Part shown: piece by piece, positions 55,416 through 58,836 of the stretch | Numbering within the stretch: position 1 is the stretch's first letter | Layout of the letters: every line of letters begins with the position of its first letter | NCBI GenBank assembly: GCA_045643205.1 | Contig: JAZUKI010000003.1 | Coordinates: 150,516-214,515 of the forward strand | DNA: 64,000 bases | Reading direction: 5' to 3' | From: Clostridia bacterium | GTDB taxonomy: Bacteria; Bacillota; Clostridia; TANB77; CAG-508 | Program-made: the position numbers and the translations under genes | The notes under the pieces: generated by a model | Told to the model about the DNA's origin: nothing | What the model saw: the letters and a program-made list of their open reading frames with translations, nothing else | The model's database searches: none

Positions 55416-56321
55416 ATGGAAAAGTCTAAAGTATATTTTACAAAAATAATTAGCGATGATGCAATTGTAAGAATTTATGATGAGATGATGAAAAATGAAA
55501 ATATCCAATTAGAGGGAAATGTAGCAGTAAAGTTACACTCTGGAGAAAAAGGAAATCAAAATTATATTCATCCTGAGATGGTAAAGAAAATAGTTGAACA
55601 TGTTAATGGTACAGTTGTTGAATGTAACACAGCATACGATGGAGCTAGAAATTCAACTAAAAAGCACAAAGAATTATTAGATGAACATGGATGGACAAAA
55701 TATTTTACGGTAGATTTGATGGATGAGAATCCAGAAGAGGATATTGAATTAGAAATACCAAATGGAAAAGTTATAAAAAAAGATATAGTTGGAGCTCATT
55801 TATTAAATTATGATTCAATGCTTGTATTATCACATTTTAAAGGACATCCAATGGGTGGTTATGGTGGAGCATTAAAGCAATTATCAATTGGTTGTGCATC
55901 AACTGCTGGAAAAGCATATATACATTCAGCAGGGGTAACAGAAGATCAATTTGAAGTATGGAGTAATCTACCTGAGCAAGATTTGTTTCTAGAATCAATG
56001 GCTGACTCTGCATCATGTGTTACTAAACTTTTCAGAGAAAGAAAAGGAATAGTATTTATAAATATTATGATTAACATGAGTGTTGATTGTGATTGTTGTG
56101 AAAATGCTGAAGATCCATGTATAAGAGATATTGGAATAATGGCATCAACTGATCCAGTGGCAATAGATCAAGCATGTATAGATATGATAGAGAATTCAGA
56201 TGATCTAGGCAAAGAGCATTTTATGGAGAGAGTAAATTCATTAAATGGTAAACATACTATAGATACAGCATATGAATTAGGCACTGGAAATAAAGAATAC
56301 GAGTTAATTAAGATAGAATAA
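55416..56321 (+). CDS. DUF362-domain protein (Cys-rich, probable Fe-S binding)
   Basis: KVYFTK...VAVKLHSGEKGN...VECNTAY...LSHFKGHPMGGYGGALKQLSIGCAS...SVDCDCCEN...STDPVAIDQAC, characteristic of DUF362. Confidence 0.75.
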   Translation: MEKSKVYFTKIISDDAIVRIYDEMMKNENIQLEGNVAVKLHSGEKGNQNYIHPEMVKKIVEHVNGTVVECNTAYDGARNSTKKHKELLDEHGWTKYFTVDLMDENPEEDIELEIPNGKVIKKDIVGAHLLNYDSMLVLSHFKGHPMGGYGGALKQLSIGCASTAGKAYIHSAGVTEDQFEVWSNLPEQDLFLESMADSASCVTKLFRERKGIVFINIMINMSVDCDCCENAEDPCIRDIGIMASTDPVAIDQACIDMIENSDDLGKEHFMERVNSLNGKHTIDTAYELGTGNKEYELIKIE

Positions 56322-56358
56322 ACAAACATATTATTTAATTAATAGTTAGGAGTTTGCA

Positions 56359-56637
56359 ATGAGTACATTTGAATCTTTTATTTGGTGTATAATTATTATA
56401 GGATTTATGGCAAAATGGAATAAAGGAAATGATGAATCGAAATATGGATCAAAAAGAAAAAAATATAAATCAAAGGATAATAAGTCAGAATATTCAGATG
56501 AAGAAATAGAAAAATATAAAAAAATTTACGGTTTAGATGATGAAGAAGTAAGAGAGATAAAAAACGGAAATCATGATCCGTGGGACTTTGAAGAAACAGA
56601 TGCAACAGAAGAAAGTGATTATTATAACAAGGATTAA
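56359..56637 (+). CDS. Small membrane protein with acidic C-terminal tail
   Basis: 92-aa ORF with one TM helix. Confidence 0.3.
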   Translation: MSTFESFIWCIIIIGFMAKWNKGNDESKYGSKRKKYKSKDNKSEYSDEEIEKYKKIYGLDDEEVREIKNGNHDPWDFEETDATEESDYYNKD

Positions 56638-56727
56638 AATTGAAAAAATTACATAAATATAATATAATTAATTTATTCAAATGGCATACATCATAGGAAA
56701 AATATTAATTTAGAGAGGTATAAATTT

Positions 56728-58155
56728 ATGAGTGGTGTTTATGAAAATAGAAAGACAATTCGAGATTTAAACAATTTAATTAGAATGTATAAGCCATTAA
56801 AAGATGTTGAATATTATTTTGTTTTAGGATATCCAAGATCTGATATAGGAAAAGGAACTTTAGTAGCTCAATTATTAGCAAATGTAAAAGATTCAGATGC
56901 AATAAAATATGATGGGCTATTAAATACAAATGAAAATGGAAGACATACAGCAGTAGGACATGATGATTTCGGAGTATACGAAAAATTTAATGAAGGAAAA
57001 AGATGGGGAAGAGAACATTATTTATTAGGGGGAGAACTTTATAGAGATTTTATTAATAGTTATGGAGAAAATGAAAATCTTCAAATAAATCCTCATATGT
57101 CTTTATATGTTGAATATGTGATACATAAAATGTGGAATGATATAGGAAAGCCTAAGAAATTATTTATAGAAGTAGGAGGACTAATTTCAGATCCTGAAGT
57201 TGATCCTATAATTACTCCAATAATACAAAGATTAACTTCTGAAGGTTTAGCAAAAGTAATATTACTTACTGAATCATCATATAATGGAGAATATATTAAA
57301 TCTAAAATAGTCCAAGAAGGGGTAAATAAATTCTTAGAAAGAAGAATTGAGCCTTGGATAGTATTTGTAAGAGATGCAAAAGATATGGGAGAAATATCTA
57401 CATCTCAAAGAATAGAGAATGAAAGAATTATAATGAACAAAATTATTGAAAACTTTAATTTTAATTTAAAATTATTAGTTTCAATTCCATACTTTGATGA
57501 ATTAAAACAATATACAGAGTATATTAGAAAAAGATTTTGTCCAATTATTAATGAAGTTGATAAAAAGGAAATAGTTCTTGCAACTAAAAATGAATCAAAA
57601 ATTGCGGATTATAAATTATATCTAGGTGATGAATATAATATTAAAACAACAAAAGATTATGATTACGATATAGATATAGTAGAAGGAACAACTTCAGCAG
57701 AAGAAAATGCAATTGCAAAAGCAAGAGCATGGTGTAAAGTTACTGGAAAAATAACAATTGGAGATGATACAGGATTCTTTATACATGAACTAAATGGAGA
57801 GCCAGGAGTTGCAACAAGAAGATGGGGAGGACAACTTCCAGAAAATGCAACAAATGAAGATTTTTGGCAATTCTTAAAAATAAAGACAAAGAATTTAAAA
57901 GATTATACTTGTCATTTTGAACAAAATATAGCAATTGCTTATCCAAGTGGAAATGTTGAATTGATAAAATCAATTAATCAAGGTATTTTAAATAAAGAGA
58001 ATCTAAAAAAAGAATATAATGGAACAGGTTATCCACTAGGAGCAGTTTTTGAATCTTTAAATAGAAATAAAAATTGGGATGAAATGACGGATGAAGAGAA
58101 AAAAGAATTTGATAAAAATTTAATTAAAGAATTAAAAGAAAAATTATCAAAATAA
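56728..58155 (+). CDS. Fusion protein: CTP-synthase-like synthetase (amidoligase) N-domain without glutaminase domain, joined to a Ham1/ITPase-family non-canonical NTP pyrophosphatase C-domain
   Basis: N-domain aligns to the PyrG N-terminus: YFVLGYPRSDIGKGTLVAQLL...DDFGVYEKF...LFIEVGGLISDPEVDP...PWIVFVRD. C-domain carries the Ham1 motifs: IVLATKNESKIADY, SAEENAIAKA, DDTGFFIHELNGEPGVATRRWGG. Confidence 0.6.
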   Translation: MSGVYENRKTIRDLNNLIRMYKPLKDVEYYFVLGYPRSDIGKGTLVAQLLANVKDSDAIKYDGLLNTNENGRHTAVGHDDFGVYEKFNEGKRWGREHYLLGGELYRDFINSYGENENLQINPHMSLYVEYVIHKMWNDIGKPKKLFIEVGGLISDPEVDPIITPIIQRLTSEGLAKVILLTESSYNGEYIKSKIVQEGVNKFLERRIEPWIVFVRDAKDMGEISTSQRIENERIIMNKIIENFNFNLKLLVSIPYFDELKQYTEYIRKRFCPIINEVDKKEIVLATKNESKIADYKLYLGDEYNIKTTKDYDYDIDIVEGTTSAEENAIAKARAWCKVTGKITIGDDTGFFIHELNGEPGVATRRWGGQLPENATNEDFWQFLKIKTKNLKDYTCHFEQNIAIAYPSGNVELIKSINQGILNKENLKKEYNGTGYPLGAVFESLNRNKNWDEMTDEEKKEFDKNLIKELKEKLSK

Positions 58156-58290
58156 TATGTGAAATATATTAATTATATTAATTATATATTTACTCAAAAT
58201 TTATGACTATATTTTTGAGTTAGGCTGATTGAAGTATTAATGAGAATAATATGTTATACATTTAATAATCACAACAAAGGAGGAAATATC

Positions 58291-58836
58291 ATGTTACAAT
58301 CATTTATTGTTACTGGAGCATCAGCTTCAGGAAAATCAACTTTAATTAATGAAGCTAGAAAAAATTATATTTATCTTCCAACTCACATGACTCGTGATTT
58401 AAGAAAAAATGAAGTAAATGGGATTGATGCAATTTTCATTAATGAGGAACAATTTATTAAAAACTTTAATGAAGGTATGTATTTAGAAGATTCTTTGGAT
58501 TTTGCATTTGTTCATAGTTTAAGAAACTACTATGGTTCACCATCTATGTGGATTGAAAAACTTAAAGAAGATGGATATTGTGCTTCACCAGTTTCTATTG
58601 TCATTGCAGAGAAGATTGTTAGTCTTTGTACTAATTTATGTTGGGTACATTTATATTGTCCTAATGAAATCCGGTATGAAAGATTAATTAACAGAGGTAT
58701 TTCTCAAGAAGAAGCTAGTAGAAGAATGAATACTGGTGATTCAAGAAACATACCTCAAAAAGCAAATTTAGTTTTAGATACTTCAAAAAACAGCCCGGTA
58801 GAGATTCTTTCTAAGATTAATAATTATAAAAAGTAA
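58291..58836 (+). CDS. Guanylate-kinase-like P-loop nucleoside monophosphate kinase
   Basis: AGGAGG RBS, then ATG at 58291. Walker A GASASGKST. PTHMTRDLRKNEVNGIDAIF resembles the guanylate kinase TTRxxRxGExDGxDY region. Confidence 0.6.
   Translation: MLQSFIVTGASASGKSTLINEARKNYIYLPTHMTRDLRKNEVNGIDAIFINEEQFIKNFNEGMYLEDSLDFAFVHSLRNYYGSPSMWIEKLKEDGYCASPVSIVIAEKIVSLCTNLCWVHLYCPNEIRYERLINRGISQEEASRRMNTGDSRNIPQKANLVLDTSKNSPVEILSKINNYKK

Follow-up and report, generated by a model that had tools for sequence, protein, structure and literature searches.

The dCTPase, dCMP hydroxymethylase and deoxynucleoside monophosphate (dNMP) kinase of T4 are an example of a phage hypermodification triad. The canonical re-amination of IMP and XMP is carried out by adenylosuccinate synthetase/lyase and GMP synthase via an O-phosphoryl or O-adenylyl intermediate. 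Guanylate kinase (Gmk) recognises its base through the Tyr of DYxF and the Asp of (E/D)-I-D, which provide stacking on guanine and readout of the 2-amino group. The cryo-electron microscopy structure of the Drosophila CTP synthase (E. coli numbering) assigns catalysis to K18, K40, D72 and E140, the uracil contact to D42, the ribose contacts to D147 and E149, and the triphosphate contacts to K187, T188 and K189 (PMC8325340). In the Ham1/RdgB/ITPA family of nucleoside triphosphate (NTP) pyrophosphatases, the Arg of the SHR signature reads the 6-keto oxygen of ITP, and this signature and the FG(Y/W)DP motif form the hypoxanthine pocket (PMC5075207). Relatives of the last three families lie side by side in a stretch of DNA from a Clostridia bacterium (contig JAZUKI010000003.1, positions 150,516–214,515), whose whole 64,000 nucleotides are called the window here. 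A 475-aa protein joins a CTP-synthase-type amidoligase domain to a Ham1 domain, and the gene of a guanylate-kinase-like nucleoside monophosphate (NMP) kinase follows. The two domains and the kinase come from well-known families, and their residues suggest that the catalytic machinery is intact and the specificity elements are altered. This module is probably an active, nucleotide-metabolic one that does not serve defence. Its parts in the window are the following.

56728–58155, + strand: amidoligase–Ham1 fusion protein, 475 aa, with CTP_synth_N and Ham1p_like matches and no glutamine amidotransferase (GATase) domain
56728–57555, + strand: amidoligase (synthetase) domain, residues 1 to ~276, CTP-synthase-type, predicted to be ATP-dependent (PF06418, hhalign, PDB profile, Foldseek, residue conservation)
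57568–58155, + strand: Ham1/RdgB-type NTP pyrophosphatase variant domain, residues ~281–475 (PF01725, structure alignment)
58291–58836, + strand: guanylate-kinase-like P-loop NMP kinase, 181 aa, from its likely true start (the mechanical open reading frame (ORF) runs from 58240)

An earlier note on this DNA had read the 475-aa protein as a PyrG-type amidoligase without GATase joined to a Ham1 domain. Pfam, the structure model and Foldseek all agreed with this, and every peptide quoted in support is present in the translation. PF06418 (CTP_synth_N) matched residues 80–268 with 38.8 bits (cut-off 26.1). The hhalign alignment paired residues 27–275 with residues 3–265 of E. coli PyrG at a probability of 97.9%, and this stretch of PyrG covers its synthetase domain completely, by the limits given in PMC9138612. 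The fusion N-domain ends at the same boundary as the E. coli synthetase domain (residue 266 plus linker; PMC9138612). CTP synthase continues with a glutamine amidotransferase, whereas the fusion protein has the Ham1 domain (residues 281–475) in its place. The PDB profile matches of the N-terminal domain were exclusively CTP synthases. The NCBIfam PyrG model gave no match to the 475-aa protein, and only Ham1-type models were returned. The AlphaFold2 model of the protein, built on 22 homologues, had a pLDDT of 86.9 and a pTM of 0.86. In the Foldseek search of the PDB with this model, the first half matched CTP synthases (E 2.5e-12) and the second half Ham1/RdgB (E 1e-11), and not one solved chain spanned both halves.

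The amidoligase domain shares with CTP synthase the fold, the P-loop Lys, the catalytic and UTP-contact residues and the GG oxyanion pair. The alignment check of the PyrG catalytic Lys, Asp and Glu proposed in the earlier note showed these residues to be conserved. The counterparts of K18, K40, D72 and E140 are K42, K60, D80 and E148 of the fusion protein, all found in 22 of 22 sequences. The same conservation was seen for the counterparts of D42, D147 and E149 (D62, D155 and E157), for those of K187 and Q192 (K191 and Q196), and for G150 and G151 of the GG pair. The counterpart of T188 (position 192) is T or S in all 22 sequences, and that of K189 (position 193) is K in 19 and R in 3. With its catalytic and NTP-binding residues intact, the amidoligase domain looks active. 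As there is no amidotransferase domain, nitrogen would have to come from free ammonia or else from a partner in trans; CTP synthase is able to take exogenous NH3 directly (PMC9138612).

The simplest reading by homology would be that the N-domain is an ammonia-dependent CTP synthase isozyme (UTP + ATP + NH3 → CTP), by which pools are topped up without channelling. The Ham1 domain would then be an independent house-cleaning ITP/XTPase fused for co-expression, and the kinase would be a salvage kinase of the UMP/CMP or GMP type. The isozyme would suit the retention of all catalytic and UTP-contact residues, including the Asp that bonds uracil (PMC8325340), and free NH3 suffices for CTP synthase (PMC9138612). 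However, the domain scores far below true PyrG and carries fixed changes near the base pocket. S15 and P43 of CTP synthase are replaced by D39 and G63 in 22 of 22 sequences and Y44 by L64 in 19 of 22, and DPY thus reads DGL in the fusion protein. The ammonia-gate loop is replaced in the family by a shorter loop with a conserved NGRHTA (NGRHTA.GH), and the gate residues of the NH3 tunnel (P54, H57 and V60) sit in this remodelled loop. The wider GATase-less clade has a common K-x-D-G motif, whereas CTP synthase has K-x-D-P-Y. The isozyme is also at odds with the Nanoarchaeon locus L062, where a family member lies about 4 kb from a canonical PyrG of full length that shares 43% identity with the E. 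coli enzyme. This was the only true PyrG found by tblastn with E. coli PyrG in the window and 1.17 Mb of loci (about 17 kb per genome). In addition, pyrG is annotated in at least some Saccharibacteria (supplement of PMC7786006). These PyrG genes, together with the coupling of the domain to a pyrophosphatase and an NMP kinase, suggest more than CTP synthase alone. We regard the isozyme as unlikely.

The Ham1 domain was matched by PF01725 (Ham1p_like) at residues 282–461 with 92.1 bits, and its PDB profile match was 4bnq (E 1.7e-23). It missed the NCBIfam equivalog cut-offs (95.9 against 234 bits for NF011397, 73.7 against 145 for TIGR00042). The domain was aligned to the Ham1 structures of S. 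aureus, M. abscessus and C. burnetii. It shares with Ham1/RdgB/ITPA the fold (TM-score up to 0.86, normalised to S. aureus Ham1) and the catalytic core (N288, K291, E319, ENAxxKA and DDTG). N288, K291, E319, K331, D347 and G349 were conserved in at least 21 of 22 sequences. In contrast, the SHR signature is absent from the fusion protein, where the aligned positions read F/S-D-K-x and no Arg is conserved, and the FG(Y/W)DP motif is replaced by GYPLGAVF. Since both elements are missing, the base preference of this domain probably differs from that of textbook Ham1. A Ham1 variant without the amidoligase domain, about 60% identical, occurs in about 50 Saccharibacteria species, which also counts in favour of the isozyme with its independent Ham1 domain. 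One Saccharibacteria genome (L084) has a second, more divergent Ham1-like gene (9484–10107, − strand; 207 aa) with TDGG for DDTG, tail-to-tail with the fusion gene.

The kinase was matched by PF00625 with 36 bits (cut-off 25.2) and by TIGR03263 with 55.6 bits (cut-off 160.45), and its PDB matches were exclusively guanylate kinases. Its start is most likely the ATG at 58291, as this codon is preceded by the ribosome-binding site (RBS) AAAGGAGG and the resulting 181 aa agree with relatives of 177–189 aa. The P-loop GASASGKS(T)T was invariant among relatives. The P-loop, the TR..R..E phosphate/NMP motif, the YLE glutamate and YYG(S/T) of Gmk are kept, whereas the Tyr of DYxF is changed to Ala, Asn or Ser and the Asp of (E/D)-I-D to Ser or Ala. 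The kinase subfamily is itself rare, comprising 41 clusters, which lie on the same contigs as the fusion.

The kinase gene adjoins the fusion gene in 15 of the 17 species-level loci with both domains, upstream in some lineages and downstream in others. The same adjacency was found in the metagenome loci L081–L085 and L093. At locus L092, the three activities are three consecutive genes for an amidoligase-type protein of 274 aa, a Ham1 protein of 206 aa and a kinase of 196 aa. The Nanoarchaeon locus L062 has the amidoligase-type domain and the Ham1 variant as separate genes of one cluster. At L057, a stand-alone amidoligase-type domain lies two genes from NTPase_I-T (PF01931, 88 bits; a YjjX-type ITP/XTPase), with NUDIX genes around. 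The repeated pairing with two ITP/XTPase families and a guanylate-kinase-like kinase would be left unexplained by a CTP synthase isozyme. In a tblastn search of about 85 loci with the window neighbours, the kinase alone accompanied the fusion. The DUF362 gene and the 92-aa ORF were absent from all of some 95 related loci. The 813-aa and 155-aa ORFs, DUF5684 and topoisomerase III were likewise missing from the loci searched. The conserved unit is thus a three-part module of guanylate-kinase-like kinase, amidoligase and Ham1 variant, with the last two fused or all three split. The kinase appears to be a genuine functional partner of the fusion protein.

Two further candidates for components were rejected. 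NUDIX genes recur near the module in at least six lineages without being orthologues of one another. A 301-aa ORF between the two L062 genes, considered as a protein like nucleoside diphosphate kinase (NDK), had no Pfam match, no PDB relative and no similarity to a weak NDK-like ORF of L057. Neither the surroundings of the module in the window nor those in nine related loci contained a riboswitch or leader that would name a ligand. The contig with the split module carries an S-adenosylmethionine (SAM) riboswitch (RF00162, 51.4 bits; L092, 5528–5630) upstream of an unrelated gene.

The family is rare. Relatives of the fusion formed 66 clusters (90% identity) among 5.8 billion non-redundant proteins, and 59 of these had both domains. 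The profile of the N-domain returned 27 clusters at E ≤1e-30 from 1.84 billion representative proteins, followed by a gap. Family members scored above 128 bits with this profile, against about 70 bits or less for ordinary CTP synthases. A pattern-based scan of one genome per species (185,579 genomes), whose counts are lower bounds, gave 17 loci with both domains, 2 with the amidoligase-type N-domain only and 60 with Ham1 only, so that 19 species genomes carry the amidoligase-type domain. Most carriers of the module were Saccharibacteria (Nanosynbacter and relatives). The remaining carriers were other Patescibacteria, one Nanoarchaeon and a few human-gut metagenome-assembled genomes (MAGs) labelled Clostridia or Bacilli. 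The nearest relatives of the window protein were from gut Firmicute MAGs (73–78% identity). Saccharibacteria rely on externally derived nucleotides (PMC7786006, PMC10633639), and mammal-associated Saccharibacteria release ammonia via the arginine deiminase system (PMC12815258). Homologues present everywhere in core genomes, which had been considered as an outcome in the earlier note, were not what these searches returned. The family is rare, patchy and strain-variable, which leaves an accessory role and a small chance of defence.

Closely related genomes showed how the module is gained or lost. Two Saccharibacteria contigs, L093 and L056, share 97.7% DNA identity across about 9 kb of flanking sequence. 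Between the ClpP stop codon and codon 2 of Ham1, 1,490 bp (L093 4916–6405; L056 7980–7999) are present in L093 but not in L056. This segment consists of a promoter region, the kinase gene and the amidoligase domain, seamlessly in frame with the resident Ham1, and it is absent with the same boundaries from five relatives at 80% identity. In about 40 Saccharibacteria species, the Ham1 gene starts with MTERPSFIVTGASASG-KEVFVATGN. Here MTERPSFIVTGASASG is the first strand and P-loop start of the kinase joined in frame to Ham1, and such loci are L018 (7956–8615), L019–L050, L052, L063, L068 and L069. By its sequence this start is a deletion scar, left by what appears to be the removal of most of the kinase and the whole amidoligase domain. 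In the oral Nanosynbacter (cluster P0031, 2,072 member sequences), the kinase gene has suffered truncations or frameshifts. Of 63 highly conserved columns in the amidoligase domain, 10 deviate in these bacteria and form a cluster in the family-specific loop, against 0 of 35 in the Ham1 domain. The extra segment of L093, the MTERPSFIVTGASASG scars and the decay in Nanosynbacter show that the kinase and amidoligase are an optional unit which is gained, deleted or decaying together, with Ham1 as the constant part. Such co-decay would not be expected of an essential CTP source.

In Nanosynbacter, the module lies in the rRNA operon. At L010 (4988–14824), the kinase remnant, the fusion gene, a DHO_dh-family gene and three tRNA genes are found between the 16S and 23S rRNA genes. 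The module follows tRNA-Ala, tRNA-Ile and tRNA-Val and precedes the DHO_dh gene, and the same rRNA-spacer arrangement was found in L008, L009, L011, L013 and L014. The DHO_dh gene is of pyrimidine type, and its position beside the module counts in favour of the CTP synthase isozyme.

We speculate that the module of nucleotide metabolism runs a recycling loop, a model that accounts for most of the observations. The Ham1 domain, as the constant part with a stand-alone function, would hydrolyse a non-canonical NTP of lactam type (deaminated) to NMP and pyrophosphate. The kinase would re-phosphorylate the resulting NMP, and a general NDK would complete the triphosphate. The amidoligase would move the γ-phosphate of ATP to the ring carbonyl oxygen, from which free NH3 would displace it, as in the action of CTP synthase on UTP. 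The outcome would be a canonical amino-NTP regenerated from an otherwise dead-end product in a nucleotide auxotroph. Candidate pairs are (d)UTP → (d)CTP, ITP → ATP and XTP → GTP. Activity of the enzymes, amination with free NH3, the sequence of steps and the candidate substrates are all inferred. That the module is an accessory nucleotide salvage and pool-sanitation pathway of nucleotide-scavenging, host-dependent microbes is plausible but falls a little short of probable. The specific loop from Ham1 to kinase to amidoligase is more tentative and less likely than not.

ITP or XTP as the substrate would be compatible with the guanylate-kinase-like partner, with the pairing with ITP/XTPases and with the smaller residues at 63/64. 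The GATase-less domain might be a new NTP aminase on a deaminated nucleotide other than UTP (ITP → ATP, XTP → GTP or dUTP → dCTP), working in a cycle of repair instead of discard. With such a cycle, episymbionts that are auxotrophic for nucleotides (Saccharibacteria, DPANN archaea and reduced gut Firmicutes) could convert scavenged nucleotides into one another in the absence of PurA/PurB/GuaA-type enzymes. We consider a new aminase of this kind rather improbable. The purine version of the loop would resemble adenylosuccinate synthetase/lyase and GMP synthase in its net conversion of an oxo-purine to an amino-purine. These enzymes differ from the amidoligase in having unrelated folds, monophosphate substrates and aspartate or glutamine as the donor. 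Phage hypermodification triads, like the module, combine the genes of an NTP pyrophosphatase, of an enzyme that modifies the base and of an NMP kinase. They differ in using other enzyme families, and the carriers of the module are cellular symbionts with no viral relatives found.

Several points weigh against the recycling loop and the pathway around it. The conserved uracil-contact Asp and ribose-binding Asp/Glu favour (d)UTP, and plain UTP fits best. The missing SHR signature weakens the ITP/XTP version. A Ham1 domain that destroys the NTP needed by the domain fused to it looks futile unless the two are kinetically partitioned. Rarity, cross-phylum transfer and strain-level presence or absence are also expected of defence genes. 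The full-length fusion of L001/L017 has no kinase within 8 kb, and in Nanosynbacter the fusion persists in clusters with very many members despite the broken kinase. The Nanosynbacter relatives L094 (5001–6767) and L095 have an intact 189-aa kinase directly upstream of DHO_dh and no fusion gene. An intact kinase without the fusion and a fusion with a broken kinase mean that the dependence between the two is not absolute. The relatives of L094 and L095 that carry the fusion have a broken kinase, a pattern that is not fully accounted for by any reading.

The three parts are all atypical for their families, and the module is accessory and strain-variable. These features would also agree with the making of a modified nucleotide or nucleoside (a signal, cofactor or natural-product precursor), in which the kinase and amidoligase would build a base-modified NTP with NH3 or another amine, and Ham1 would trim it to the monophosphate. 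Distant paralogues point in the same direction. The GATase-less paralogue P0087 (high GC; L089 1228–11630 and L090) lies in a biosynthetic-looking operon with an aminotransferase, HpcH aldolase, MaoC dehydratase, ornithine cyclodeaminase, epimerase and AsnB-like amidotransferase. The same operon holds a class Ib tRNA-synthetase paralogue and a glycosyltransferase. Another GATase-less paralogue sits between a HAD hydrolase and a PIG-L deacetylase. The conserved partners of the window family, however, are the kinase and Ham1 only, with no transporter, glycosyltransferase or further tailoring enzymes among them. The neighbouring NUDIX genes are not orthologous between lineages, and relatives were lacking in viral contigs and GenBank phages. 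We therefore judge a modified product to be improbable. One member of the GATase-less clade, of 612 aa, has an N-terminal half of no recognised family.

The genes and sites around the module in the window were established with the ORF listing, ARAGORN, Pfam and NCBIfam, which confirmed the positions of all four ORFs and of the tRNA-fMet gene reported in the earlier note. They are listed here.

55416–56321, + strand: DUF362 protein, 301 aa (PF04015, 173.6 bits), a neighbour in this genome only and outside the conserved module
56359–56637, + strand: 92-aa ORF, a putative gene with no family match, a neighbour not conserved with the module
56640–56668, + strand: promoter-like site TTGAAA-17-TATAAT upstream of the fusion gene, with 11 of 12 consensus matches; a consensus match only, as such sites are no commoner in the region than in shuffled sequence
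56713–56718, + strand: RBS GAGAGG of the fusion gene
58848–58885, bidirectional: terminator-like hairpin (17-bp stem) that separates the kinase gene from the convergent tRNA gene
58889–58964, − strand: initiator tRNA-Met(CAT) gene (ARAGORN), a neighbour outside the module, with its own promoter-like site at 59035–59007

The DUF362 protein has 8 Cys, including the cluster C225-x-C227-C228-x6-C235. The 92-aa ORF has its only hydrophobic segment at the N-terminus (FESFIWCIIIIGFMA, mean Kyte-Doolittle 2.1), and 52% of the residues of the following tail are charged. The tRNA-Met(CAT) shows the marks of a bacterial initiator tRNA, namely a C1xA72 mismatch and GGG/CCC pairs by the anticodon loop.

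These four ORFs had been taken for one nucleotide-metabolism cassette. They share a strand and are closely spaced (38, 91 and 85 nt), as the genes of a single pathway cassette would be. The kinase held its place as a partner (15 of 17 loci), but the DUF362 and 92-aa genes dropped out, being found in no related locus against at least 15 for the kinase. The fusion gene is preceded by the promoter-like site and RBS listed above, and its relatives at 77–78% identity have wholly different neighbour genes. A pathway made of all four ORFs is hardly credible on these grounds. The earlier note had the fusion protein right and over-extended the story in the gene set and in the defence island.

The defence island had been proposed as an anti-phage or nucleotide-depletion system inserted at tRNA-fMet. 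The rarity of the family, its spread across phyla and its polymorphism between near-identical strains would agree with this. The window also contains a complete type I restriction-modification system (HsdM, HsdS and HsdR) with an HTH gene and a T5orf172-domain gene at 31090–38212. At 38641–40010, a SocA/Panacea-domain protein (70 bits) comes after a small ORF with a weak RelA_SpoT match (21.6 bits), a pair that looks like a toxSAS-Panacea toxin-antitoxin. Both systems lie 17–25 kb upstream of the module and speak for defence, with a Zur/ZnuABC operon and ordinary genes in between. The GC content is slightly lower at 52–58 kb of the window. A stand-alone amidoligase paralogue (35% identical, GKA for the GKG P-loop) in a Bacteroidales MAG (L067, 3049–6441) lies directly after two HD-domain proteins; it could be a different system, possibly conflict-related.

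The comparison with known defence systems and mobile elements gave another picture. PADLOC matched none of the four proteins and neither of the two large ORFs upstream, and its sole matches were weak and on an unrelated 72-aa zinc-ribbon ORF. No relatives of the fusion or the amidoligase domain were found in IMG/VR viral contigs, GenBank phages or PLSDB plasmids, and the matches in the plasmid collection were ordinary Ham1 genes on mislabelled chromosomes. In about 25 loci, the contexts of the module were housekeeping or rRNA-operon genes, with no formal enrichment test run for defence genes. Neighbours in other genomes were UvrB/FtsW/MraY/PBP, PGK/ClpB/ClpP/RadA/RuvC and Ada/Ogt. No effector, sensor or toxin-like component was seen in the module. 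Insertion at the tRNA gene was not borne out either. No integrase was present among the annotated window neighbours of tRNA-fMet, and the window held no second copy of the tRNA 3′ end (≤3 mismatches allowed) and no att-like direct repeats. A defence role for the module is therefore very unlikely.

Other features of the window lie apart from the module. A 606-aa protein with a weak RelA_SpoT match is encoded on the opposite strand at 41047–42867 (−). A full-length OLE (Ornate Large Extremophilic) RNA was found at 42950–43514 (+) (RF01071, 305.6 bits, E 5e-86), which marks the host as an OLE-carrying anaerobic Firmicute. It is directly followed by ORFs without a Pfam family (43579–44178 and 44716–45939). 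Upstream of DUF362, the stretch 51492–55252 contains a weak MazG-like ORF (108 aa), the 72-aa zinc-ribbon ORF and the overlapping 813-aa and 155-aa ORFs without a family. Its GC content is slightly lower (0.26), and none of its ORFs turned up in related loci.

The earlier note had not recognised the fusion as a described enzyme, and our literature search likewise returned nothing that describes the fusion, the three-part module or how it behaves. The literature on PF06418 or "CTP synthase-like" proteins, or on Saccharibacteria with CTP synthase/pyrG, contained nothing on the fusion protein. Automatic database annotation names it solely "non-canonical purine NTP pyrophosphatase". A nucleotide-themed gene set beside a tRNA gene is not by that alone a defence island. 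If the amidoligase uses free ammonia on UTP, it would be the first natural stand-alone synthetase domain of a CTP synthase; if it acts on another oxo-NTP, it would be a new enzyme activity. The module shows how an accessory enzyme can plug in frame onto a resident house-cleaning gene, and L093 and L056, at 97.7% DNA identity, provide a natural pair of strains with and without it. Patescibacteria, DPANN archaea and reduced gut Firmicutes are unable to synthesise nucleotides, and to our knowledge little has been established about how they balance and clean their scavenged pools. The module is a compact, testable candidate for this balancing and cleaning.

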